A program made the translations under genes and the position numbers. A stretch of DNA of 46,729 nucleotides from a virus. Taxonomy: Duplodnaviria > Caudoviricetes. Below, piece after piece: positions 5,010 through 45,181 of the stretch; within the stretch, counting starts at the first letter, position 1, and each line of letters starts with the position of its first letter. The stretch is taken from positions 1-46,729 of IMG/VR virus record IMGVR_UViG_3300017761_003339; one strand, written 5' to 3'. The notes under the pieces were generated by a model that saw only the letters and a list, made by a program, of their open reading frames with translations, ran no database searches and was not told the origin of the DNA.

Positions 5010-8000
5010 CTAAGGAATCAAACCTTGAGAATTTGCCAAACCTACAGCAATCAATTTTTGTTGCATTTGCTCTGTAATAAGACCTCTTTTTTGCATATCT
5101 CTTAAATATTTTCTTTCGGAATCATTGCGATAATACTGAAGATGAGTTTTGATTGCTTCCAATTGATCTTGCTCGAAACGATTGAAAAGATTTACAATTT
5201 CTTCTTGGGCTTTTTCATCATTATCTTGCTCAATATAACTAGCAAGTACGGGTTTCAACCTTGCGATATCCTCACCATATTTTCTCAAACTAGTGCGCAT
5301 AACCTCACCCCTAATTTTTAACTCTTCTCTATACAAATCGTTAGGTAATTCGTATTCAAAATAATTAGGAGAATTTGGTTTATCATCAGCTCCCGTAGTG
5401 ATATCCATTTCCCAACGGAATTTATTTTTCATTGGGTTTGAGATAACTTGATACATACCGCTTGTTTTACCATTCCATTTCCACTCGTAATCTCTGCCTG
5501 TCATTTGTTGATACATCATAGCAAGATCCATAAGACCACTATTTACTTTCATAGCATCAACATAAGTCAATTTTTCTTTATCTGCATCTTTAGGAGAAAG
5601 AGAATACTTGCGAAGCGCAAATGGATCAAATACGGCTTGAAAATAAGCACCAGCAGTTCCGGGGTCAGCCAAGGTTACTTTATATTGTAAATCTTCGCCA
5701 AATGGGCCTATTGCAGCCTTATAGAACTCGTTTCTAGTATCTTCATTAAAAGATATATTTCGATTCAAACGCTGTACAGTTTTAATTACTACTGGTCCCC
5801 AAGCGGCTGGCCAACTATTATCTTCTCTAAATTTTGAAATTTCACTTGCACTCTGTACTATTTCAGCGTTTCCTTTTGACATAAAGGAGAAGAAAGAAGG
5901 GAAGAAAACTGACATAGATGTACTTAAAGTTCCAGATGCAAAATTCTCCCAAGCCTTAGCACTTGTATCGGGGTTTTTCAAATCGTTTGTCAGAGCCCCA
6001 ACACGAGCTAAACCTTGGAACATCGGAAGATTTTCAATACCATTACTCAAAGTACTCTGAATCAAAAATCCTAAACCATTCTTTTGATCGTCAAGAAGTT
6101 GACCCATACCATTTTCTCTTTTAGCACGACCTTGTTCATAAACACTACCATACAAATTCATTGCGTATCCAAGGAAACCAGCATTATTGGTGTTAAGAAT
6201 TTTATCACCATTCTTAGCAAAACCGCCTCTACGAGTAATAAAATTATCTGTGCCCATTTGCTTACCCCAATCTTGACCAAATGTTTTTCCTACGTTATTC
6301 AAAAGAGTCATTCCATTGGCTTTCATATACTCAGCGTGCAAAGTAGCATTGTACAAACCACCACGCAATTGTATGTTTTTCAATGATTTATCTTTTTCCA
6401 TATCGCCTCCGATTAGAATGGCTCCTGCTTTAACAGCAGACATTGCAAAACCATAGATTGCCCAACTTGTTATCATCTGAGCAGCATCATAGGTTGCTTG
6501 TCTTTTAGCAGCAAACAAATCAATTTTAGCCAATTCGTAATCCTTTCTTTGCTTTTCGTTATTTAATTTTTTACCTATCTTATAATTTTTGTTAAATTGT
6601 TTGAATTTATATTGGTAAATACCTTCAGAAATCAAATATTTAGGACTTGCGATTGCAGGAACTGTCTTAGCGATTGCAGTACCCAAGAAGTTAACAGGTA
6701 CTTTTGTAAATGGCATCAATGTCCAAAGTGCTACATCACCGACTTGTAAAAGGTTCTTACTCATTCCACCTACAGTAAATTGCCTTTTTATTTCTGAGCC
6801 CAATCCTGTACCCGGAGTTTGAGCACGATTGGTTGAATACAAATCTCTTACTTTCTTTCTGATTGCACCACGCCCTGCGGAAATGGCTCCAGAAATTATG
6901 TTGTCTCCCAACAAAGTACGTTTTAAACCTTCTCTTTCGAAAGCAGCATACATTTCTCCATTGTTATAAAGAATAGCGCTCATAGCACGAATTACATCCT
7001 CATCTAGTTTACCATCTGCTTTTTTGAACATACCATCGAATATACCATCTTGGAATCTTGTGCCTTGAATGTTTTGGAAGTAGTCTATCATCGACCTTTG
7101 AGCAGCCATTTGACCAAAGGAAATATCACCTCCATATGCCATAACACGTCCGGTAAATTCAGCAGCGGCAGGTCCAAAGGATGCTAATAGCATTGAAGGA
7201 TTTCCACTAGCAATAGCACTAACAGGCCCAAGACCAAAACTCCACGCCAAACTACGAGCCAAAGTATATTCTTTTCCGTCACGCAATTCTATAGTGCCAT
7301 TTTTGAGTTTGGTGAGTGTTAAATCCAATGCATCAGCTTGCTCTTCCATCGTCATATCAGACAATGATTTACCTGTGCTCTTGTTCACCCAAACATCCAT
7401 AAACTTAAATGCCCATTGAGGATCTTTGAAGAAGTTAACTTGACCTAAGTTGTCATAATAACGATCCAATCCTTTGTTGGTATTCAATACACCATACTTA
7501 AAGTTGTTACTTTCAATATAAGAATATCTTGCTTTTGACAAATTTCTAGCCATTTTCCAATTGTCAAAACTTAAAGTATTACCCTTAATTCCTTTGCCGA
7601 ATTGATCACGCAATTTTTGTATTGACCTAGCAGCAAAGTTAGTGCTCCATATATTATTTTCTATGTTGGCTACATAACTTAAAACAGCAGTACTGACATT
7701 TAACAAAGCACGGCTACCACCAGAAGTAATTCTCTCGTTCCAGAAAATTGGCTTTCTAGCCTCTAAGAACTGAGCAACACGGATAGTTGCATCTCCTACT
7801 GCTTTCTCAGACTTCCAATAGTTATCAAACGCTTGGTCTGACCAATCGGTTTCTAATGCAGAAAGAAAGTTGCTATTTAATTTTTGAGAGTTTTTATAAT
7901 CATTGACAAGTGCAGTCAATGTTTCTTTTTGTTTTGGAGTAAGTATAACTCCGTTGTTTTCTAGCGTTTTTTCAATTGCTTTCTGAGTCCCAATCTGATT

Positions 8001-11000
8001 AAAGAAACGAGCCATCTGTAATATGCGACCTGCTTGGCTGAATAACTCAGATGATACTTGGAAAGCGTAAACAATAGATTCGGGAGTATACAAGTTATCA
8101 CCAATCTTACCAGAACGAACTTGGTCTGCCCAATCTAATCCTTTATCTATCAAATCTTTATCTTGTCCAAATCTTTTAACACCTTGTGTCAAAGCAATGG
8201 CGATTTGGTCAAAGCCCTGTTCTTTCAAATACTGAAGGAACATATCCATTGTAACTGCACTATCTACAAGTCCTAATCCTGTTTCACGCAATACGTTAGC
8301 AACATCAGCAGCCTTTTGTTCAACCTTTAAGTTTTTAGCATCTTCTTCTAACTCATTCAAGAAATCGCTTGGGTATTCTTTATCTCTATCCAAAGCATTC
8401 TGAACGGTTTTACGATAGTCAGCACCAAAAATATCAATCAAATCTTCATTGCTCAAAAAGTCCATGTCTGTGACAGCCTTAAAAATCTCCAAAGGACTGA
8501 AATCTTGTGCAATTAAATTCTCATAAATAGAATCAATTGCTGATGGGTCAATACTTATCTGACGAGTAATTTCTACTTGACGATCACTAAATGCTGTATT
8601 AACCTTATTCATTGTTTCAACAGCAATATTGGCTTGTGCTTGCTTAAAAGCATTCTCATCAAAAAGAGAAGTACCCAATACCTCTTTGATTCTCTTTGGT
8701 GTATATCCTTTGTTAATCAAAGCCGTAAAACTAGAAACTTTATTGTTTCTGCTTTGTTGCATAGCTTGAGAAAAGTCTAAAGCAATGTTGCTGTAATTTA
8801 ATTGACCCTTATTTATAAAGCCTTCGAATATAGGTTTTAATGTTGTTTGAGTATAAGAATTAGGATTCTCTGCATCTAACAAAGTAATAAACGGATCGAG
8901 GAAAATTATTTGACCCTTTGGAGTAAAAAATACATTTCCATTGTGCAAATCATCAATTAAAATACCACCTTCAAAATTTTCAGCGGTAACTTCCATGTCA
9001 TTTTTTAGAATGCGTTTTTTAGATATTTTCGCTGGCCAAGTAATTCTTTCTTGCAAAGCATCACGTAATTTTTCTTGGTCTGCTAGATTAGTTTGTTCAA
9101 TACCTACTATTCCGTGAAACATACGTTGTTTTAAAATAATACGCAATGTTGGTTCGGAATTTAAAAGTCGAGCAAGACCAATCGGAGTTTCTTTTCCTTG
9201 CCTCACATCATCACTAAAACCGAGTATTTCATATGCTGTTTCAGGAAAAATGGTATTGTAAGTCATTATCCTTCTCATCAAACTCAAATAGTTTATACCA
9301 TTGAGAGGTAATGTTGCTTTGTATGTATACTTAGAAGTTTTACTCAGCCATACTCTAGATTCTTCGCCTGCTGCAATTTCATACATCGGAGGAAAAATGT
9401 TCTCTAATTTATTTAGATAAACATTATTCTCTTTGGCAAATTCTCTTAAGAGGTCTTCATCTTTTCCTTCGGTGTCGAAGTCATTTGATTCACCAAAGAA
9501 ATCCCAGGAGTTATCTTTAAAAAGTTTTGCAAGCTGATTGATGGCTGCTTCTCCCACTCTTCCAAAAGTTTCTTTGTTACCTCCGAGGGGGATGGATTCT
9601 TCTTCTGTCCATCCAAGTCTGTGGATGTCTCTTGCATTTCCGTTTTCATCTACTAATATTGGTTTTTTTAATTGTGACTTATTTATAAAATCAGAGTCTG
9701 ATATCTTACTTACTACTGCTCCACTTGGACCAAAAGAATTGTCTTTTGTAACCAAAGCCTTAGGGCCAAGTATATCTTGAAGATACTCAACTAGTTCATT
9801 GCCATCAAATCCTTTTTGATATGCACCATTGCTTATTTCATAACTCTTTGATTCTGGACCTTTCTTTCCTCCTTTTGTTGGTTCAATATCGTTCTTCCAC
9901 TTGCGTGAACTGATTACTGCCTTACCGCCATCATTCAACTTATCAAATACATCTAAAACAATAGCATCACGAATGTCCTTAGGAACTGCGTTTACTACGT
10001 TTAATAATACAACACCATCATACTTCTTATTGATTTGATCTGAGCCCGTAAATGTAGGTTTTTGTTTACCTTGCCATCTTTGTGGGTTTGGTTCATACGA
10101 ATCAATATTACGCCCCAAAGTATTTGCAATGGCATCTGTTCCGAGACCCAAGCCTGCACCATAATCTAAAACATCACCCGTCATATCTTTAAGCAAATTG
10201 GCGGCTTTCACATAAGAACCAACTGTATTTGGACGCTGAGTTGTCACACTAGCCGCTTCAGAACGAATCTTTTGAGATTTGTTTAAGAACTCATCAACTT
10301 GAGCCGGAGATGCTACGTCTTCTTGACTTTCTTGGGGAGTGACTTGAGATTCTGTTTGGGGTTTTCCTTCGACCACTTCTTCGCCAACGCTGGCTTCTGA
10401 CTGTACAGGAACTTCATTTGTGCTTTGCTCTTGAACGGCATTTGTTTTTAGTTTTAATTTTTCGGAAACTTTTCCTGTCGCTAATGTTTCTGACAAGGCA
10501 TTCATATAATCAATAAATCCTTCACGAGTTCTAATACTCTCGAACAATTGAATTTTACCATTGGTGTTTCTTGCGATAAAATCTGAAAACACCCTAGCAA
10601 TTTTTTCTATAGAGCTTAATTTTAAAGTCTTTCCTTCCTCGGCTAAAGTTGATCCAAGTTCAACAGTGAACTCTTCGCCTTTTTGACTATTTCTATAACC
10701 ACTTACCAAAGCATTGATTGAGGCTAAACCTTTTTCACCTAGTGTTTTTCGTGTTACAGCAAGTAAATCATTTTTCATTTGTTCAAACAACTTTGAATCT
10801 GAGCCCAAAGTATTCAACAAAAGCAAGTGAGAAACCTCGTGGCCTATAGTTGTATTGGTGGCAGCATCCATATTGATTTGGATTTCTGACTGAAATTTAC
10901 CAGTCTTCTCATCATATTTAAGAGAAATGTTTCCGGCTTTGTTTTCAGCCGTGCCCATTTGTTTCATCGATTGAGAAAATTCCTCTTGGTTCATCATAAT

Positions 11001-14000
11001 GATGTTTACCCCTGGCGTTACTTCATCCAATACACCTTGTAATCTTTGAGCATCACTTATAAGTTTATCAGCGTTCTGTTGACCAGCCGCTCTTGCTTTA
11101 TCTGCAATTTGATTTAACTTCTGTTCGTCTTTAATTGTAGCACCCAAAGAAGTTGCCGCTGTTTGCGCTGTTGTGACTATCTGAGGCCCTTGGGCAACTA
11201 AAGCGGTATCTTCTTGAGTTGCTCGGTCTTTAGCTTGTTTAATGGCGTTATTTATGCTTGCGTCTTGACTCTCGATTTTGATTTTATCGTCAATAACAGC
11301 ATTTACAAAATTACCATCTGTCATAGAAGTCAACAAATCATTGTTATCAACTACGATACTAAAATTATCATTGAATGTAATTTTGGTGTAATCTAAATTT
11401 TTACCTGTTGCAACATCAGTGAGTTTTTTATCGATTCCTTTTATTTGAGCATCGATTAAAATTTTTGTATTCTCATTTGTTTCTTTATTCGCAAGTTCTT
11501 GTAATCTTGCTTTTTTAACGGCCAAACTCACATAGTATTTTTGATGGTCTCTATTGCTGATTAGTTCTTTTGCGGCCGGGAATGTTTTAATTACCTCGCT
11601 GAAAGATTTTTTCATATCTTTCAGTTCGTTGATGTCTATCATTCCTTTTGCATACAAGTATTCTGGTAATACATTTACTCCTTTTTCTCCTAGTACTTGA
11701 ATTGCATCTGTAACCATTTGAGATAAACCAGCATCCTTAAGTTTTGCAAGGACACGATTTTTGCTCTGATCTATTTGCTTTTCACGAATTGATTCCATAA
11801 TCGAACTACCACCACTTAATACTGCTACTGTTGGTAAAATATTAATTGCAGTCGATAATCCATTTTCTGAGACCCAAGAACTGAAATCAGTTGGATTATC
11901 AGTGCTATATTTATAGTTAAGGTAACCTTGTGGAATTTCTTGAAAAACTTCTTGAAGCTCCTCAACTAACGTGGATACTCCAATTTTACGAGCAACTCCT
12001 CCAATACCATAACCTTTGGCAATTTTGCTAAGAAATCCTTTTGTGAAAGGCATCATTTCGAAAGCATACGTAGGAGAAATTAAAATTTGAGTTCTCAAAC
12101 TTTCAGCCGCAGCATTTTCTGCTTCAAAAATAGAACCTGTACGCCTAAAAGCATTTCTATAATTTTCACCGGTTTGATTCCAAGTATCTTGAGCAAAACC
12201 AATTGCTCCGCCAATAAACGGATTGCCCGTCAAAACAGTTGTTGCAATTGGCACAGCCATATTGACACCTTGCATTGATAAGTTTTGTACAACATTTTTT
12301 AATGCCTCTACACTTAACAAACCTTCTGTTTTTAATATCTGATCAAAAGGTCTAATGTATACTTGATTGGAATTTTCTACCAACTCTAAGTGTTTTAACA
12401 AACCTGTTAATGGATTGTCTTCATAACCAACAGCAGCACTTAATGAAGTAATAGCATTTCCAAATTGGTTTGCTGCTGTTCCAACAATTATATCTCCCAC
12501 TCTCCATCCAATGCTGTTGCTATTTTTTACTTCTTCTACGGAATAATCGCCATACGCTTTTTGATATGCATCACGATATTTTCTATACGCTGCTGTAGTC
12601 AATTGATTTTTTTCATTGACATCTTTTGCAATACCATATTTTTTTTGAATGGCTTCTAAATCTTTTTTAGATTCATTTTCAACTTGTATAAAAAATTCAG
12701 ATGCTTTTTTCTCAGCCTCTTTTTTTAATAAATCTGCCGTTTCCTCTAAAATAGTATTTTCTTGACTAACTAAATCAACATAACTCTTATATGCTTGATC
12801 ACGTTGATCTTGACTCAAATTCGGATTAGATTGTACAATGCTCAAATAAGAATCATAAGCACTTTTTGTTTTATTTTCTGATGTGCTCTTAAGCGAAGAA
12901 AATGCTTGTTCAAATTGACCTGCAAGTTCTCGGTCAAAATTATTCTTAACTTTTTCTGTATTGGCTACTAAAGACTTAATATCATTTTCCGCATTTATAT
13001 CTGCCCTTTTTACATCTTCTGCAAATACATCAACTTCGCCAAGTTTCTTTTCAACAATAGATTGAATCAAAGTTTCTTCGGCTTTTGCCTTTACCATACG
13101 GAGCAAACGAGGTTTAACCATTTGAGCAACCTCTTCTTTGCTCATATTCAATTTTTTAGCTGTCTCATCGTTTATCGGACCAAAAGTAGAATTTAAATAT
13201 TCATCTACTTTGTTCTCAACATAAACAGGATTGATTTTTGGATTGTTAGCATCGTCTAACATTAAAACACCAAAGTCATAAGACAACTTACGATTGGGAT
13301 TAAGTTCTCCGTCTATTGTAGCTGGGTTGTCAAAAAAGTTGGCTGGCATATTAGAACCAAAACTTTTTAAAAGACGATTGGCATCTGGTAAAAGCGTTTG
13401 GTCAAGTCTTTTTTCAGATTCTCCCATTCCTTGCTCTACCATCATTTCAGTTTCTGTAGAACTAGCAATGTTTAAATCATCATAATTCTGCTTGCCTCTT
13501 ACATAATTTTCAATCGCATCTTGCTGTTCTGAAATTGGTTTTGGCTTATCGGCCTCAGCTAATCTTTCAGTTATACTTTGTTGTTTGAAAGGTGCTCCTT
13601 CTTGTTTTGGCGCAAGCGCAGGAAATTCTTTCTTTTGTATTTTGGGTTTTACTACTAGGCCAGCATCATTAACATCAACATCATATTTTTTATTAAGTTG
13701 CTTGACCATAGTATTCAAATCCTCATCGACATCAGGATTCTTTTGGAGTTGCTTATATACCTCTACAAAGTTTTTAACTTTTTGCGCAACTACAGGAATA
13801 TTGATTGCAGGTTGCTCTGTTAAGGCAAATATCTCACGATAAAGATTTTGATACTGTGTTGATAATGGACCACCGAAAGGTTCTCTTCCAGTTGATTTGA
13901 TGAGTGATGATGGCTTTGGGCCTTCAGTTGAAGGAACTGCTGCACTTGGTGCATTACCCAAAGTTATTGCTACTTGACCATCGCTAGGTGGTGCTACATC

Positions 14001-14291
14001 TCCCAAGTTTTCTGACAAACTCGGCTTGGCTTCAGCCACCAATTCTTCAGTCTGTCCAACCGAAGGAAATTGAAAAGAAGAACTTTCTTCTGCGAGGTCT
14101 TGTATGATTGGCTGGTCTTTTTTTTTTAAGTATTCTGAGGCCGATTTGACACCATATAAATTCTCAAGTGTTGAATCAGCATTTGCATTATTACTAAGAT
14201 ATCCTTCGAAATCTTCTTTCGCTCCAAAATACTGAACGAAATCTGGTTTCTTGCTTAACTCATCATACAAATCTTCGAAAGTTTCTGCCAT
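5010..14291 (-). CDS. Giant polyvalent virion cargo/ejection protein (zincin-like peptidase, class I SAM methyltransferase, kinase-like domain)
   Basis: 3093 aa. HEVSH (10827-10841) with downstream EEF; VLDYGAGLG (about 10146-10166) ... YDGVVLLNVVN; GEESRVW..YK...DLHNGN (8934-8951)...FLDP. Confidence 0.8.
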   Translation of the reverse strand: MAETFEDLYDELSKKPDFVQYFGAKEDFEGYLSNNANADSTLENLYGVKSASEYLKKKDQPIIQDLAEESSSFQFPSVGQTEELVAEAKPSLSENLGDVAPPSDGQVAITLGNAPSAAVPSTEGPKPSSLIKSTGREPFGGPLSTQYQNLYREIFALTEQPAINIPVVAQKVKNFVEVYKQLQKNPDVDEDLNTMVKQLNKKYDVDVNDAGLVVKPKIQKKEFPALAPKQEGAPFKQQSITERLAEADKPKPISEQQDAIENYVRGKQNYDDLNIASSTETEMMVEQGMGESEKRLDQTLLPDANRLLKSFGSNMPANFFDNPATIDGELNPNRKLSYDFGVLMLDDANNPKINPVYVENKVDEYLNSTFGPINDETAKKLNMSKEEVAQMVKPRLLRMVKAKAEETLIQSIVEKKLGEVDVFAEDVKRADINAENDIKSLVANTEKVKNNFDRELAGQFEQAFSSLKSTSENKTKSAYDSYLSIVQSNPNLSQDQRDQAYKSYVDLVSQENTILEETADLLKKEAEKKASEFFIQVENESKKDLEAIQKKYGIAKDVNEKNQLTTAAYRKYRDAYQKAYGDYSVEEVKNSNSIGWRVGDIIVGTAANQFGNAITSLSAAVGYEDNPLTGLLKHLELVENSNQVYIRPFDQILKTEGLLSVEALKNVVQNLSMQGVNMAVPIATTVLTGNPFIGGAIGFAQDTWNQTGENYRNAFRRTGSIFEAENAAAESLRTQILISPTYAFEMMPFTKGFLSKIAKGYGIGGVARKIGVSTLVEELQEVFQEIPQGYLNYKYSTDNPTDFSSWVSENGLSTAINILPTVAVLSGGSSIMESIREKQIDQSKNRVLAKLKDAGLSQMVTDAIQVLGEKGVNVLPEYLYAKGMIDINELKDMKKSFSEVIKTFPAAKELISNRDHQKYYVSLAVKKARLQELANKETNENTKILIDAQIKGIDKKLTDVATGKNLDYTKITFNDNFSIVVDNNDLLTSMTDGNFVNAVIDDKIKIESQDASINNAIKQAKDRATQEDTALVAQGPQIVTTAQTAATSLGATIKDEQKLNQIADKARAAGQQNADKLISDAQRLQGVLDEVTPGVNIIMMNQEEFSQSMKQMGTAENKAGNISLKYDEKTGKFQSEIQINMDAATNTTIGHEVSHLLLLNTLGSDSKLFEQMKNDLLAVTRKTLGEKGLASINALVSGYRNSQKGEEFTVELGSTLAEEGKTLKLSSIEKIARVFSDFIARNTNGKIQLFESIRTREGFIDYMNALSETLATGKVSEKLKLKTNAVQEQSTNEVPVQSEASVGEEVVEGKPQTESQVTPQESQEDVASPAQVDEFLNKSQKIRSEAASVTTQRPNTVGSYVKAANLLKDMTGDVLDYGAGLGLGTDAIANTLGRNIDSYEPNPQRWQGKQKPTFTGSDQINKKYDGVVLLNVVNAVPKDIRDAIVLDVFDKLNDGGKAVISSRKWKNDIEPTKGGKKGPESKSYEISNGAYQKGFDGNELVEYLQDILGPKALVTKDNSFGPSGAVVSKISDSDFINKSQLKKPILVDENGNARDIHRLGWTEEESIPLGGNKETFGRVGEAAINQLAKLFKDNSWDFFGESNDFDTEGKDEDLLREFAKENNVYLNKLENIFPPMYEIAAGEESRVWLSKTSKYTYKATLPLNGINYLSLMRRIMTYNTIFPETAYEILGFSDDVRQGKETPIGLARLLNSEPTLRIILKQRMFHGIVGIEQTNLADQEKLRDALQERITWPAKISKKRILKNDMEVTAENFEGGILIDDLHNGNVFFTPKGQIIFLDPFITLLDAENPNSYTQTTLKPIFEGFINKGQLNYSNIALDFSQAMQQSRNNKVSSFTALINKGYTPKRIKEVLGTSLFDENAFKQAQANIAVETMNKVNTAFSDRQVEITRQISIDPSAIDSIYENLIAQDFSPLEIFKAVTDMDFLSNEDLIDIFGADYRKTVQNALDRDKEYPSDFLNELEEDAKNLKVEQKAADVANVLRETGLGLVDSAVTMDMFLQYLKEQGFDQIAIALTQGVKRFGQDKDLIDKGLDWADQVRSGKIGDNLYTPESIVYAFQVSSELFSQAGRILQMARFFNQIGTQKAIEKTLENNGVILTPKQKETLTALVNDYKNSQKLNSNFLSALETDWSDQAFDNYWKSEKAVGDATIRVAQFLEARKPIFWNERITSGGSRALLNVSTAVLSYVANIENNIWSTNFAARSIQKLRDQFGKGIKGNTLSFDNWKMARNLSKARYSYIESNNFKYGVLNTNKGLDRYYDNLGQVNFFKDPQWAFKFMDVWVNKSTGKSLSDMTMEEQADALDLTLTKLKNGTIELRDGKEYTLARSLAWSFGLGPVSAIASGNPSMLLASFGPAAAEFTGRVMAYGGDISFGQMAAQRSMIDYFQNIQGTRFQDGIFDGMFKKADGKLDEDVIRAMSAILYNNGEMYAAFEREGLKRTLLGDNIISGAISAGRGAIRKKVRDLYSTNRAQTPGTGLGSEIKRQFTVGGMSKNLLQVGDVALWTLMPFTKVPVNFLGTAIAKTVPAIASPKYLISEGIYQYKFKQFNKNYKIGKKLNNEKQRKDYELAKIDLFAAKRQATYDAAQMITSWAIYGFAMSAVKAGAILIGGDMEKDKSLKNIQLRGGLYNATLHAEYMKANGMTLLNNVGKTFGQDWGKQMGTDNFITRRGGFAKNGDKILNTNNAGFLGYAMNLYGSVYEQGRAKRENGMGQLLDDQKNGLGFLIQSTLSNGIENLPMFQGLARVGALTNDLKNPDTSAKAWENFASGTLSTSMSVFFPSFFSFMSKGNAEIVQSASEISKFREDNSWPAAWGPVVIKTVQRLNRNISFNEDTRNEFYKAAIGPFGEDLQYKVTLADPGTAGAYFQAVFDPFALRKYSLSPKDADKEKLTYVDAMKVNSGLMDLAMMYQQMTGRDYEWKWNGKTSGMYQVISNPMKNKFRWEMDITTGADDKPNSPNYFEYELPNDLYREELKIRGEVMRTSLRKYGEDIARLKPVLASYIEQDNDEKAQEEIVNLFNRFEQDQLEAIKTHLQYYRNDSERKYLRDMQKRGLITEQMQQKLIAVGLANSQGLIP
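10313..10441 (-). CDS. Nested small basic protein MPFKSKAQMKFLYSQKPALAKKWSKENPKQNLKSLPKKVKKT
   Basis: 42-aa ORF in an alternative frame inside the giant gene, with an A-rich upstream region (AAAATTAAAACTAAAAACAA-ATG). Resembles the MPFKS..Q small phage proteins (from recall, not searched). Confidence 0.65.
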   Translation of the reverse strand: MPFKSKAQMKFLYSQKPALAKKWSKENPKQNLKSLPKKVKKT

Positions 14292-14295
14292 GTTA

Positions 14296-15825
14296 TTATT
14301 TCTTTTTTAAATATGGTTTTGTAAAATTACTTAATTCTTCACTAGTTGTAAAGGTTTTTCCACCCATTGCCGAAGTTGCTTTTGATGCAGCCGATTTCAT
14401 ATCATTTAAGTATGTTCCTAATCTTGCTACATCATACTTGCTTCCTGCGATGTTCACATATGAATAGTTTTCCAAATCGGTATAATATATCTTACCGCTT
14501 TCTGAAAATTCAACAAAAGGAGTAATTCCCTTAATTTGATTTAATTCATCATCGTGAGCAATCACCTTAACTCCATCTACAATTTTATATGGATATGTTC
14601 TTACTGTACTTATTGTAACTTTTCTTCTACCAGTCAAACTATTGCCTGCGCTATCGAAAAATTTATTACTTGGATTAATTTCAACGCCCTCTACTTGAAT
14701 ATCCTCTTTTGCTAAACTTGTGGCTTTTAAATTGACTGCTTTTGCTAATTTTTTATTACCACGCATTTCTGTTGCGCCAAAATCAACTATTTCAGGTACT
14801 TCTGTAGGAGCTAAAGGATCAGAAAGTGTTCCAGTACTGACGCTGACATTAACACCTTTTTTCTCTTGAATTAACTTGCCTTTGAGTTCTGGATTAGAAT
14901 ATTGCGAAGCAGCCAGAATCAAAATATCTTTAACTTTTTTCAAGTCTTCTTCAGTATATTGACCTTCTTCGTCTGTTATAATATTCAATTTATTTCTAGT
15001 AGCAACTTGCTCAATAACATCTGGATTCAAACTCATATAATCCTCAACCTCTTCCTCTATTGATCTTGGCGGTCTACCTAAACTAGCATATGCTGCTTTG
15101 TTATTGTTATATGCATTTTGAGCATCTGCTCTGTACAAAGGTCTAATATACATTGTACGCAATTCTTTTGCACCATATGCATCTGGAATAGAAACAACAT
15201 CTTGACCCAATATTGTTTCGTTCATAGACTTAACTCGTGCTGCCAATTCTTTCTGATAAGGAATTGCACTTACAGCAGTTGTCATAGGTATACCCTCTGG
15301 AGTCAACTGAAAGAAGTTATCGAATGATCCAGGATTTTCTTGAGCATATCTTTGCAAGTCTTCAAGACTTGTTGCGTCTTTGTAAACGGGCATAAAGGCA
15401 TCTAGTTTGCCTCCATAAAATTTTGTTTTATCGTTTAAGAATTTTGCTTGCTCTTCGAATTGAAATAGATGTTTAGAGTATGTATTTAACTCATCCATCT
15501 TAGAATCTATATTCAACATCAATTTAGAGAACTCATTAGAATCGTGTGGATTATCAGAACTTTTAATTCTCTCCATTTCAGTAATGGTATTTTCTAAAAG
15601 TTTTTGTGCCTCTGGTAAAACCAATCTATTTAAATTTGCTTTTTGACGAAACAAGTTATATAATTTTTCTTCTTGTTTTGCCTCTTTATCTTTAGCAGCA
15701 ATACCTCTTTTTAAATTACGGTTTTTATCCGCTTCGCTCATTTTCAAAGCGATACTACCAAGTTGACTACTTAGATTTGTTTTACCTTGTAAGCCAATTG
15801 CGTCACCTAAAGATGCTTCTGCCAT
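14296..15825 (-). CDS. Virion cargo/ejection protein
   Basis: 509 aa, helical N-terminus, located between the pilot-like gene and the giant cargo gene. Confidence 0.6.
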   Translation of the reverse strand: MAEASLGDAIGLQGKTNLSSQLGSIALKMSEADKNRNLKRGIAAKDKEAKQEEKLYNLFRQKANLNRLVLPEAQKLLENTITEMERIKSSDNPHDSNEFSKLMLNIDSKMDELNTYSKHLFQFEEQAKFLNDKTKFYGGKLDAFMPVYKDATSLEDLQRYAQENPGSFDNFFQLTPEGIPMTTAVSAIPYQKELAARVKSMNETILGQDVVSIPDAYGAKELRTMYIRPLYRADAQNAYNNNKAAYASLGRPPRSIEEEVEDYMSLNPDVIEQVATRNKLNIITDEEGQYTEEDLKKVKDILILAASQYSNPELKGKLIQEKKGVNVSVSTGTLSDPLAPTEVPEIVDFGATEMRGNKKLAKAVNLKATSLAKEDIQVEGVEINPSNKFFDSAGNSLTGRRKVTISTVRTYPYKIVDGVKVIAHDDELNQIKGITPFVEFSESGKIYYTDLENYSYVNIAGSKYDVARLGTYLNDMKSAASKATSAMGGKTFTTSEELSNFTKPYLKKK

Positions 15826-16553
15826 TATTTTCTAATATAAGACTTTGGAGTTTGAAACCTACGAAGTCCACTCAAACCACCCATAGAATAAGGCAGACTA
15901 GGTTTCATTGTCATACTTCCCATAGAAGGTACTTGAGGTTCACCTTGATTATCATTTCCTCCCATTCCATAAATATCTCTATACATTTGTCTATCTGCTT
16001 CAGCGCTATCCATAGCCATACCTTGCTCTGCAATACCCAAAGCACCAGAAAAAACACTACCAATTCTGTCTTGTTTTGCTTGACCATATTCTCTCAATAA
16101 TGTATCACGCTTACCTATATCTCTTTGAACTTGACTTTGTTGCAATGAACTAATTGCTCTATTTTCAGAAGCCATTCCAGCCAAACCTTGTCTTCTAATT
16201 GCATCATTTTGACCAGCAAGACCTAATGCAAAATTTGCATTGTTTACGCTAGCCATTCTAGATAAAGCACTTGACATTTGACCGCCTGACATATCTGTTA
16301 TTGCTCTTTGATTTGAAAGTTGAGAAGAGGCAAAATTTTGCTCTGCTAAATTTCTAGAATCAATTCCCATTCCTGTCCTATACTGTTTTTCGTATAATCT
16401 ACGACTCTGAAGCAAAGGATCTGCAGCATCCATAAATTTTGCCTCTCGTGTTTGATTAACCTCCTTAATTTTTTGAGAAGCCTTGATAGCGCCATAAATA
16501 TTGTATCCCATCTCTCCGAGAGATAATCCAACTGATAAAGGATCTAGTATCAT
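15825..16553 (-). CDS. Virion cargo/DNA pilot-like protein
   Basis: Hydrophobic Gly-rich N-terminus (MILDPLSVGLSLG), Q/A/S/M-rich helical body. Confidence 0.6.
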   Translation of the reverse strand: MILDPLSVGLSLGEMGYNIYGAIKASQKIKEVNQTREAKFMDAADPLLQSRRLYEKQYRTGMGIDSRNLAEQNFASSQLSNQRAITDMSGGQMSSALSRMASVNNANFALGLAGQNDAIRRQGLAGMASENRAISSLQQSQVQRDIGKRDTLLREYGQAKQDRIGSVFSGALGIAEQGMAMDSAEADRQMYRDIYGMGGNDNQGEPQVPSMGSMTMKPSLPYSMGGLSGLRRFQTPKSYIRK

Positions 16554-32304: not shown

Positions 32305-32585
32305 AAACAAAGGATATCGAATGGTATCAGGCTATGTGGGAGTCACGTCCACACAAATGCCAGGAATGTGGTTTACATCTACCACACTTCAGTCCGATGT
32401 ACATCTCGCATATCATAACAAAAGGAAGTTATCCGAGTCTGAGGAATCATCCCGAAAACTTTATGATCTATTGTTCGCAATGTCATCAATTATGGGAATT
32501 TGGGAAGAGGACGATGATGAAGACTTATGAAGAAGCGATGGAGATAATGAATCGCCTTAAAAGAGAGTATCATGAATCACGGTAG
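32301..32585 (+). CDS. HNH-like zinc-finger nuclease
   Basis: CQECG...SHI.....YP.LR....N....CSQCH. Confidence 0.7.
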   Translation: MKTKDIEWYQAMWESRPHKCQECGLHLPHFSPMYISHIITKGSYPSLRNHPENFMIYCSQCHQLWEFGKRTMMKTYEEAMEIMNRLKREYHESR

Positions 32586-33708
32586 TTTATTTAGTGGAAT
32601 AGGTGGATTTGATTTAGCAGCCGAGTGGATGGGTTGGGACAATAAGTTCCATTGCGACATCAACCCCTTTAGTAGAAAATTATGTAGTTTTTATTGGCCC
32701 AAGGCCGAATCTTATGAAGATATCAAGACAACTGACTTTAGAATTTGGAGAGGAAAAATCGATGTCCTCTCCGGTGGTTTCCCCTGCCAGCCATTTTCCC
32801 ACGCTGGAAAAAGGATGGGAAAAGAAGACGAACGCCATCTTTGGCCCTATATGCTCCAAGCAATCAAAGACATTAGACCAAGATATGTCGTGGGGGAGAA
32901 TGTTCGTGGAATCCTTAGTTGGTCGGAGGGATTGGTTCTCGAAGAGGTCTACGCTGATTTGGAAGGTGAGGGATACGAAGTCCAAACGTTTGTACTTCCA
33001 GCTGTCGGCATCAACGCTCCACACAAACGGGACAGAGTCTGGATTATTGCTAAAGACACCAGCAGCGATGGATGCATACAGCGAGAACCTATCGAAGAAG
33101 GAACAGGTATTCGGGAACTCTGGGACACTAGCACAGGAGGTAGCAACGGGATTCATTTACAAGAGGGGACTGATACCAACACCACAAGCATCGGACTACA
33201 TAGACAAGAACACGAGCAAGAGTTGGGAATCAAAAGGGGGAATCAATTTCAGTTTGGGAAATCCGAAAATAAGAGAAACGCTACCGACACCAATAGCCGG
33301 GGATTGGAAGGGTCAATTGAGATCGGACGGAACAGCGAATATGTTGAGCGGAAAAGCGACATTGGGATTACTGCCGACACCGAACGCTTGCGATTGGAAC
33401 TCGGCCAAGATGCCACAGACTTACATCGCCTCAGTTCTCAGACACAAGGAGAAAGGAGTCAATCAGCAGTTAACATTACGCCAGATGACAATGTTCATTC
33501 CGAACAAGGTGGACCATCCGAAATTTGGGACGGCTTCCCAATTAAATCCCCACTTTGTTGGGGAGATGATGGGCTTCCCACTGAATTGGACGGACTTGCC
33601 CTTCCTAAGTGGAGAAAAGAAAGTATAATGGGCTATGGTAATGCCATTGTTCCACAAATTGCTTACCGTATATTTGCAACCATAGATGAAATCGAAAATA
33701 GAAGCTAA
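32572..33708 (+). CDS. DNA (cytosine-5) methyltransferase, catalytic (alpha) chain
   Basis: SLFSGIGG, GGFPCQPFS, GENVRG, PHKRDRVW, GYGNAIVPQ. Confidence 0.9.
   Translation: MNHGSLFSGIGGFDLAAEWMGWDNKFHCDINPFSRKLCSFYWPKAESYEDIKTTDFRIWRGKIDVLSGGFPCQPFSHAGKRMGKEDERHLWPYMLQAIKDIRPRYVVGENVRGILSWSEGLVLEEVYADLEGEGYEVQTFVLPAVGINAPHKRDRVWIIAKDTSSDGCIQREPIEEGTGIRELWDTSTGGSNGIHLQEGTDTNTTSIGLHRQEHEQELGIKRGNQFQFGKSENKRNATDTNSRGLEGSIEIGRNSEYVERKSDIGITADTERLRLELGQDATDLHRLSSQTQGERSQSAVNITPDDNVHSEQGGPSEIWDGFPIKSPLCWGDDGLPTELDGLALPKWRKESIMGYGNAIVPQIAYRIFATIDEIENRS
32714..33628 (+). CDS. Overlapping-frame methyltransferase partner (beta) chain with target-recognition-like repeats and motif IX
   Basis: 304-aa ORF nested in the methyltransferase gene; four L[PK]TP.A.D repeats; LNPHFVGEMMGFP. 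True start may be at 32762. Confidence 0.75.
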   Translation: MKISRQLTLEFGEEKSMSSPVVSPASHFPTLEKGWEKKTNAIFGPICSKQSKTLDQDMSWGRMFVESLVGRRDWFSKRSTLIWKVRDTKSKRLYFQLSASTLHTNGTESGLLLKTPAAMDAYSENLSKKEQVFGNSGTLAQEVATGFIYKRGLIPTPQASDYIDKNTSKSWESKGGINFSLGNPKIRETLPTPIAGDWKGQLRSDGTANMLSGKATLGLLPTPNACDWNSAKMPQTYIASVLRHKEKGVNQQLTLRQMTMFIPNKVDHPKFGTASQLNPHFVGEMMGFPLNWTDLPFLSGEKKV

Positions 33709-44230: not shown

Positions 44231-44504
44231 TGCATATATCCCTAAAGAAGTCTATGATGAATTTATCGCACAGCATAGCAATTCTAAAAAAGCTCTTGAC
44301 TATCTCTCTATTATTTTGGAAAATCGTATACGATCCGAACGATTTCTTATATCGAGAGATTTAATCAAACAAGTGGACCATCAGAAAATTAGTATTCCGG
44401 TTAAGGACCATTTGATGCCGTACCTCAATGAGTATTGTGTGATTAAAGGTATTACCAAACAAGAACTTATTGTCAAACTTATTAAAAGAAAAAGAATCAT
44501 ATGA
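44217..44504 (+). CDS. Putative ribbon-helix-helix DNA-binding protein
   Basis: ISIPV....LNEYC..KGITKQELI. Confidence 0.45.
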   Translation: MKSIDAYIPKEVYDEFIAQHSNSKKALDYLSIILENRIRSERFLISRDLIKQVDHQKISIPVKDHLMPYLNEYCVIKGITKQELIVKLIKRKRII

Positions 44505-45181
44505 AAGCAATTGGCTACATCCGGGTGAGTACGGATATGCAAGCAGAAAAAGGTACATCCTTGGACAACCAAGTAGCACGCATCAAAGAATTTGCTGAAC
44601 GCAAAGGATTTATACTGGAAAATATTTATGAGGATGCTGGCTTTAGTGGAAAAAATACTAACCGACCAGCATTCCAAGAGATGTTTAATCGACTAAAAAA
44701 GGGTGATGTAAACGCTGTCATTGTTTGGCACTCCACACGATTTGCTCGTAATCTCCGTGACTTCTTGAATCATATGGACATCCTAGAAAAAAAGAAGGTT
44801 AAGTTCTACTCTATAGAAGAACCTGAGATGAGCGGATCATCCGGTAAGGCTATGCGAAATCTGATGGCCGTGTTTGCCGAGTACCAAAGCGATGTCACCG
44901 GAGAGTACACACGATCCGTTAAAATAAATCTTAAGAAGACAATGAAAGTCTATTGTGCATATCCTCCCCTGGGATTTAAGAATGAGGATGGTAAATTGGT
45001 CCGAGACCCAAAGGCATATCAAATTGTTGATCAAATCAAAGTATATCACAATCAAGGTTTATCATTACGCACCATTGCTCAAATGATTAATATGATGGGA
45101 CATACGGGTAGTAAAAATGGAAAATTTCATGCAAGTACAATTCAAAAAATACTAAAAAATAATATATATGATATACATTGA
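44501..45181 (+). CDS. Serine recombinase (resolvase domain plus short recombinase domain)
   Basis: GYIRVST..Q, D.G.SG....RP, RFARN, FAE, PLGF. Confidence 0.9.
   Translation: MKAIGYIRVSTDMQAEKGTSLDNQVARIKEFAERKGFILENIYEDAGFSGKNTNRPAFQEMFNRLKKGDVNAVIVWHSTRFARNLRDFLNHMDILEKKKVKFYSIEEPEMSGSSGKAMRNLMAVFAEYQSDVTGEYTRSVKINLKKTMKVYCAYPPLGFKNEDGKLVRDPKAYQIVDQIKVYHNQGLSLRTIAQMINMMGHTGSKNGKFHASTIQKILKNNIYDIH

Follow-up and report, generated by a model that had tools for sequence, protein, structure and literature searches.

Peptide words at cassette borders of a giant phage protein: candidate cleavage sites of its own zincin

P0001 is a large polyvalent protein of 3093 amino acids (aa) encoded on the minus strand of a tailed-phage contig, IMG/VR record IMGVR_UViG_3300017761_003339, whose 46,729 nucleotides (nt) are referred to below as the window. 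Between two conserved backbones, P0001 and its homologues carry an array of enzymatic modules, and copies of a short peptide word with the core [KR]-x-Q (here N-K-S/G-Q) stand at the module borders. On balance, we favour the reading that this word is a border mark at the level of the peptide, the recognition site of the protein's own zincin-like metallopeptidase and the point at which modules are swapped.

Border words and cassettes in P0001 and its homologues

The features concerned, all on the minus strand and listed in the order of the protein, are as follows.

5010..14291, minus strand: P0001, found as an open reading frame (ORF) and by family scan; N-terminal backbone, zincin, cassette array, C-terminal backbone
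11100..14291, minus strand: N-terminal backbone, aa 1-1064; conserved in homologues; word nearly absent
10422..11099, minus strand: zincin-like metallopeptidase, aa 1065-1290; HEVSH at 10841-10827, distal Glu1207 at 10673-10671
10269..10289, minus strand: border word 1, FLNKSQK, aa 1335-1341; predicted local distance difference test (pLDDT) below 50 in the model
9690..10268, minus strand: cassette 1, class I S-adenosylmethionine (SAM)-dependent methyltransferase, module M1, in 24/37 arrays
9669..9689, minus strand: border word 2, FINKSQL, aa 1535-1541, six residues past the last methyltransferase strand
8820..9668, minus strand: cassette 2, Kinase-PolyVal protein kinase, module M4, in 7/37 arrays
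8799..8819, minus strand: border word 3, FINKGQL, aa 1825-1831, at the junction of array and backbone
5013..8798, minus strand: C-terminal backbone, aa 1832-3093; conserved; word nearly absent

An earlier note on this DNA had proposed that three words bracket the methyltransferase and the kinase downstream of the HExxH peptidase. This arrangement was borne out, together with the coordinates, the spacings (200 and 290 aa) and the DNA-level resemblance between copies 2 and 3. HEVSH, at aa 1151, lies 184 aa ahead of word 1, and no other NKxQ word occurs in P0001. The methyltransferase is matched by PF13489 at aa 1368-1462, below the curated cut-off in the whole-protein scan, and its model has Foldseek matches to SAM methyltransferases (E about 2e-6); the kinase is matched by PF18762 at aa 1610-1804 (E 7e-12). 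In the array model, where the alignment for the kinase half is shallow, each of the three words falls within, or borders on, a stretch between folded domains that has pLDDT below 50.

The reality of the words rests on homologues, because P0001 alone raises them barely above chance. Within P0001 the triple is not significant: 4/60 block shuffles equalled or exceeded its BLOSUM62 sum-of-pairs of 78, and the unshuffled protein itself contains an unrelated triple with a score of 80. Nor did the word emerge when each long homologue was searched without bias for over-represented 3-mers, the top 3-mers being mostly within the shuffle range.

Protein searches (25 + 30 hits) combined with locus scans gave 187 matching ORFs or proteins, represented by 97 sequences; the C-terminal backbone is present in 33 of these, and a further 58 have the methyltransferase. 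Querying with the kinase, in a third search for homologues, added nothing new. The group with the C-terminal backbone was expanded to 66 members, of which 58 include the zincin end and 37 have distinct variable regions. In these 37 arrays, [NSTG][KR][SGA]Q occurs at 116 sites in the variable regions, or 4.06 per 1000 aa, compared with 0.14-0.24 per 1000 aa elsewhere (0.16 in the N-terminal and 0.24 in the C-terminal backbone). All 37 arrays are closed by a site that lies -2 to 16 aa from the start of the backbone, 35 of them by the common pattern, P0015 by DKAR[IL] and P0012 by R[SG]Q. At this junction, which is occupied by word 3 in P0001, K and Q are invariant in 14/14 aligned sequences. P0044 has one site and no module.

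Cutting at the sites yields full-length modules that recur from array to array: besides the methyltransferase in 24 arrays and the kinase in 7, there are the unnamed modules M2 (12 arrays), M3 (9), M5 (7), M6 (6), M7 (5) and M9 (3), and GNAT in others. The earlier note suggested looking in homologues for different domains between conserved copies of the motif, and this is what they contain, in varied order; for example, the kinase is last in P0001 and first in L012. A test blind to the motif placed 82/201 homology-block ends within 10 aa of a site, against a background of 8.6%, although these ends are not independent. The pattern also errs, as in L081, where GNAT is falsely split. Doubled sites 5-11 aa apart in L075, P0005 and P0009 show junctions at which each partner kept its own site. 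As for the motif F[IL]NK[SG]Q[LK] of the earlier note, its core is upheld in the form [KR]-x-Q, and the remaining letters proved to be a dialect of this lineage.

Several recurring cassettes lack a family match (M2, M3, M5, M6, M7, M14; L011:10636-12012, L016:10309-11352, L011:12127-12975, L011:10024-10623, L012:10635-11606, L010:12241-12615). M2, M3, M6, M7 and M14 have no Pfam or NCBIfam match at useful E-values; M2 also found no match in an atlas search, M5 has a weak ADP-ribosyltransferase lead in the atlas (0.78), and M9 (L077:11971-12480) matches part of TIGR04096. In the same backbone family, P0015 (aa 1281-2392) has four borders of the form DKAR[IL] without Gln, a full change of dialect. 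In the giant ORF of L100, the array region includes some 17 tandem copies of a 20-aa repeat (aa 2589-2929).

Host dialects and residue constraint of the word

The methyltransferase also occurs in proteins with other backbones, and 72/91 representatives have it together with both flanks. Where an HExxH lies upstream, [KR]xQ is found on both sides of the methyltransferase in 41/52 proteins (2.0 expected); where none does, in 3/20 (0.55 expected), and two of these three are ORFs truncated by the edge of their locus. Of the 11 HExxH proteins that miss the pair, four have a longer methyltransferase variant, with the site just beyond the flank examined. The middle residue of the word may be S, G, A, Q, T, K or E.

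The dialect of the word goes with the host protein and not with the module. Across 44 proteins, words upstream and downstream match within the protein with a count of 111, compared with a permuted mean of 47.5 and a maximum of 69 in 20,000 permutations, and the match persists when one protein is taken per zincin cluster (11, 18 or 24 clusters, p<=0.002). The residue before K (N, S, T or G) is the same in 124/144 within-protein pairs versus 82 permuted. Methyltransferases that are 85-93% identical sit in backbones whose zincins are only 25-45% identical, and they carry GKAQ, SKSQ, NKSQ or TKSQ on both ends, according to the backbone. The rank correlation of the word is 0.51 with the zincin and 0.28 with the methyltransferase. 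In the zincin tree, a starred clade of 26 rows has K/R-S/A/G-Q words and a starred clade of 11 rows has R-Q/K/E/A-Q words, with several long branches unplaced; the methyltransferase tree was made with FastTree only. A fresh set found by the zincin alone comprised 33 loci, of which 9 were redundant, leaving 24 new proteins. In this set, identical words within a protein downstream numbered 54 against a permuted mean of 31.9 (maximum 55 in 5000), and the upstream control, at 20 versus 16.1, was not above permutation. We propose that all copies in one protein drift together because each site must suit the resident zincin.

Two further arrangements were seen around this methyltransferase family. 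The giant ORFs of L040, L119 and L122 place the zincin after the methyltransferase, which is flanked by RF-containing words in place of [KR]xQ; these may represent another dialect. In L053:4363-7785, L051, L054 and L056 the family belongs to acidic polyproteins that have no HExxH, and its edges bear hydrophobic-x-Glu words; by eye, these [ILVM]-x-E words resemble what we take to be sites of the T4 gp21 kind, a likeness not used as evidence here.

The constraint on the word lies mainly on its residues and not on its codons, because synonymous codons are shared at chance level and Arg codon families switch. Successive copies in the same-backbone set have identical synonymous codons in 85/172 cases versus 80.1 expected, Arg switches between AGR and CGN in 8/19 within-gene pairs, and within genes the Ser ahead of Lys is encoded by AGY as well as TCN. 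Words 2 and 3 of P0001 share 18/21 nt and 6/6 synonymous codons (chance 0.017 from the codon use of the gene), while word 1 shares only 1/5 and 1/4 with them; given the chance level among successive copies in general, the near-identity of words 2 and 3 is local. The kinase of P0001 is 27-31% identical to those in the same slot of L003 and L004, compared with 52-70% for the flanking parts, which fits replacement of the kinase cassette in the window lineage and may explain the likeness of the two words. On the methyltransferase flanks there is a small codon excess (88/155 vs 74.5, z 2.3, the rows not being independent), and the middle Ser is TCN in 36/36 sites, TCN making up 59% of Ser codons in these genes; we read both as common descent of the copies.

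Crossovers do occur inside the word. In the clearest comparison, L010 vs L074, taken from 26 site pairs with one-sided DNA identity, a single clean cassette of 129 codons differs, and the crossover falls inside the word, with 98% identity to the left and 91% to the right. Such crossovers may reflect either a preference of recombination or selection that keeps only such products. The suggestion in the earlier note of micro-homology anchors for exchanging cassettes is therefore retained in part: the cassettes are swappable, with crossovers inside the word, but maintained micro-homology at the DNA level is mostly unsupported, codon sharing being at chance. Conservation of the junction as DNA beyond the need for coding, as in integrons, was not found, and the TCN-only Ser is the sole contrary point.

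Proposed cleavage by the resident zincin and its rivals

In the zincin domain, H, E and H of HExxH and the distal Glu are invariant in 33/33 aligned domains. The model (pLDDT 70) has a helix, three strands, the HExxH helix and the Glu helix, the topology described for MPTases; zincins account for most of the model's top structural matches (Z 6.0-6.9 over 114-162 aligned residues, graded middling by the tool). Foldseek gave no match to the model at E<=0.001, the zincin profile found two chance-level matches only among sequences of solved structures, and no cultured phage with this zincin was found among 50,697 records. A complex prediction of the zincin with Zn and 33 residues around word 3 (score 0.01, mark 0.32) was counted neither for nor against cleavage. 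In the giant ORFs of L023, L033, L036, L118 and L095 the HExxH is preceded, at a distance of 90-190 aa, by an extra copy of the word, so that excision of the zincin itself is possible in these lineages.

The array, the place of the word at its borders, the dialects, the residue constraint and the crossovers are established by comparison; as regards packaging, ejection, timing, cleavage and scissile bond, we infer the following course. P0001 would be packaged whole and uncut, the backbone carrying the cassettes through the tail. After ejection, the zincin would refold in the host and cut at the K-x-Q words, at or beside the invariant Gln; our weak guess is the bond after it (Q/x). This would release the methyltransferase of 200 aa and the kinase of 290 aa, and leave an N-terminal piece that includes the zincin as well as a C-terminal piece of 1260 aa. 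The 8-14 nt shared in coding for the word would be the place where recombinants that are in frame and still cleavable arise or survive. Self-cleavage, in our assessment, is the best explanation of the comparisons and fits every one of them except P0021.

A number of points weigh against this reading. P0021 has HExxE instead of HExxH (aa about 1150-1160), perhaps an alternative metal site or a dead enzyme, yet five KSQ/RSQ sites are kept. Cleavage at the word is inferred from comparison, and the match to the zincin fold is modest (Z<=6.9, none by Foldseek). The word tracks the whole backbone, so that a link to the zincin is inseparable from a link to any other trait of the lineage. Seven HExxH proteins (L034, L039, L046, L048, L050, L065, L140) have no paired [KR]xQ, the HExxH-less proteins used for comparison are often other kinds of phage protein, and P0038 holds the kinase inside a stretch of 812 aa without a detected site. 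The pattern [NSTG][KR][SGA]Q was drawn from the same proteins on which its density was counted, and in the fresh set the signal is modest (7.5 vs 5.3 [KR]xQ per 1000 aa). Finally, the N4 virion RNA polymerase, which according to PMC5512222 has such a domain and in which a passage of PMC13434306 notes an HExxH subdomain, is packaged unprocessed (PMC5512222). Like P0001 it is giant, ejected and equipped with HExxH, but its architecture is fixed; it is a counter-example to automatic self-cleavage.

The word might instead be bound without being cut, as a docking, packaging or unfolding/threading mark that the backbone, the portal or the ejection channel reads once for each module. Every positional and codon result suits such a signal, as does P0021 with its sites kept beside an altered HExxH. 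A nested basic gene in the linker after the zincin also starts with a similar word, and crassvirus cargo must partly unfold to pass the tail, as passages of PMC10172136 describe. But the association of the word with an upstream HExxH would be left unexplained, the backbones of 1000-1200 aa, which are also threaded, lack the word, and the first residues of the nested gene are constant across border dialects; we regard a mark of this kind as unlikely. It is also unlikely that a different protease, from the host or encoded by the phage in trans, cuts the word while the zincin does another job such as opening peptidoglycan cross-links. For the metallopeptidases of phi24B gp47 (10.64898/2026.04.10.717836) and phi14:2 gp65 (10.1101/2020.03.07.982082), digestion of peptidoglycan has indeed been proposed in the passages concerned, which also counts against self-cleavage. 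In cultured phages, moreover, the methyltransferase family is found in head-region proteins of Myrna, CRP-738 and CRP-3 without HExxH; 13 records were matched, and the five that were opened showed no HExxH in the protein and no paired [KR]xQ at the module edges. On the other side, the capsid ORF has no [KR][SGA]Q, the scaffold-position ORF has only one internal and unlike AEKSQY, and NK[SG]Q occurs only in P0001. No other protease was identified among the window ORFs scanned (14 in one scan and 17 in another, not every ORF being covered). The word also changes between close phage lineages while agreeing within a protein, a pattern better suited to a linked enzyme encoded by the phage than to a host enzyme.

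An account in which the word is mainly a DNA recombination anchor, either micro-homology or the core site of a recombinase, with the peptide incidental, could draw on the L010/L074 crossover, the TCN-only middle Ser, the codon excess at the methyltransferase flanks, the shared codons of words 2 and 3, and the YqaJ exonuclease and serine recombinase encoded in the window. We hold it to be improbable: third positions drift at chance in the same-backbone set, the codons of Arg and of the Ser before Lys change family within genes, the doubled sites keep those of both partners, and fixation of TCN is expected also from common descent. The word could lastly be a substrate for the kinase or methyltransferase of the same chain, or a mere preference of linkers or helix caps, given that Lys and Ser can be modified and that the word stands in linkers. 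This is very improbable and, on the sequences compared, already largely refuted by the dialects and by arrays that have no kinase, no methyltransferase or no module at all and still keep the word; the middle residue is variable, and a generic linker preference would not yield dialects specific to a protein.

Genome setting, precedents and significance

The remaining features that adjoin the zincin and P0001 are the following.

10313..10441, minus strand: nested basic gene of 42 codons, +1 frame, in the linker after the zincin
14296..16553, minus strand: two ORFs upstream of P0001, 509 and 242 aa, with no known family in family scans

Many relatives also have the nested basic gene, which mostly lies inside the giant gene but stands apart from it in two loci. 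At its start it reads much like the border word of the SKSQ lineages; the idea of a decoy inhibitor of the zincin was rejected, because these first residues do not track the border dialect.

Virion structural genes adjoin P0001, the minus-strand order being portal, scaffold-position ORF, capsid, ring, muzzle, the two family-less ORFs and P0001. The portal matches phrog_6547 (E 1e-55), and a family scan of the window ORFs gave the muzzle PF25731 (E 1e-35) and the ring PF25702 (E 2e-9). Crassvirus-type families above cut-off are PF25731, PF25729 and PF25702, with PF23898 below it; the capsid ORF has weak crassvirus and SU10 matches only, and no terminase was identified among the window ORFs scanned. 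We call the phage crassvirus-related, not a member of Crassvirales. The N-terminal backbone has two mildly hydrophobic segments (aa 679-697 and 814-832) and no PHROG match. The ORFs of 509 and 242 aa, neither of which contains a [KR][SGA]Q word, are by gene position likely to be further ejection proteins. P0001 itself is likely an ejected virion cargo protein, to judge from its position and from the crassvirus layout in the relevant passages of PMC10172136. The only trace of a host is one 3.3-kb fragment (L180) in a Sphingomonadaceae metagenome bin, too short to trust; crassvirus-like genes and the published range of the kinase lead us to guess at a host among the Bacteroidota.

Elsewhere in the window, a serine recombinase/invertase-like gene (44501-45181, plus strand; phrog_95, phrog_125) possibly serves integration, and no link to the array was found. 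Two long ORFs of 378 and 304 aa (32572-33708 and 32714-33628, plus strand) overlap on the same strand in different frames. The longer starts and ends like what we take to be a cytosine methyltransferase, which suggests an overlapping two-chain enzyme.

By joining HEVSH, a class I methyltransferase and Kinase-PolyVal in one chain, P0001 qualifies as a polyvalent protein as understood by Iyer et al. 2017 (PMC5512222). Like the polyvalent proteins described there, it is very large, lies among virion genes and has an HExxH zincin with distal Glu; it joins enzymatic domains of unrelated chemistry, to which homologues add GNAT and others. That paper already proposes autoproteolytic release of domains by the zincins of polyvalent proteins, with processing of P1 DdrB as precedent, likens them to the polyproteins of RNA viruses and, for a Verrucomicrobium locus, raises the possibility of cassette recombination. 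Self-processing is thus a known proposal, and the site code appears to be the new part. In the text of PMC5512222, supplements aside, no cleavage site or border motif is named ('linker' 0 hits, 'boundar' 0 hits), and in the literature, judged mostly by title or start of abstract, we found no description of border words or a site code in polyvalent proteins. Arrays of the P0001 type differ from the account in that text in having ordered internal slots, n+1 sites per n modules, a dialect for each protein and crossovers inside the site. In crassviruses, where ejected cargo includes a zincin protein (phi14:2 gp65), fused polyproteins have been called 'likely cleaved' by or near a zincin in a passage of 10.1101/2020.03.07.982082. 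The cargo genes in the crassvirus passages of that paper and of PMC10172136 resemble the window in having muzzle, ring and capsid upstream and three genes in a row after the muzzle. The window differs in its variable enzyme array and in sites undescribed in those passages; no RNA polymerase family matched the three post-muzzle ORFs in family scans that included no profile or fold comparison dedicated to the backbones.

Two other kinds of system invite comparison. Head polyproteins cut by capsid-maturation proteases of the T4 gp21 type also string enzyme modules together and fence them by a short, lineage-specific word, and the likeness extends to the methyltransferase family shared with the head-region proteins named above; unlike in those systems, the word of P0001 is not shared with the capsid or scaffold-position protein, and the linked protease is a zincin. 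Polymorphic toxins, which PMC5512222 mentions briefly, likewise attach exchangeable enzymatic modules to a conserved carrier and recombine at a junction that is conserved. In P0001 arrays, however, the modules are internal, several and reorderable and are not a single C-terminal tip, the C-terminal 1260 aa being conserved and the variation internal; the junction is conserved as peptide.

The passages of PMC5512222, 10.1101/2020.03.07.982082 and 10.64898/2026.04.10.717836 that deal with the zincins of polyvalent proteins and crassviruses do not settle whether these enzymes act on their own chain or on the cell wall, the latter two leaving the role between processing and peptidoglycan digestion. 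With candidate sites now named, one recombinant fragment and one point mutant can decide it. The dialects KSQ, KAQ, RSQ, RQQ, RKQ, RTQ, REQ and DKAR provide natural pairs of protease and site for tests of specificity, and the words give exact borders to injected enzymes of unknown family (M2, M3, M5, M6, M7, M14), which are candidate effectors of anti-defence or host takeover. If the self-cleavage reading is true, the word would provide polyvalent-protein zincins with their first readable cleavage code, and it could serve as a ruler for dividing thousands of unannotated giant proteins into single effector domains. For the phages themselves, we give roughly even chances to a wider picture, in which aquatic crassvirus-related phages inject effectors on a plug-and-play principle: a carrier that is fixed and ejected would hold a built-in zincin and an internal array of slots, a single word of three residues would be both protease site and crossover point, any enzyme with the local dialect on both ends would be delivered and released, and protease and sites would co-evolve in each lineage.

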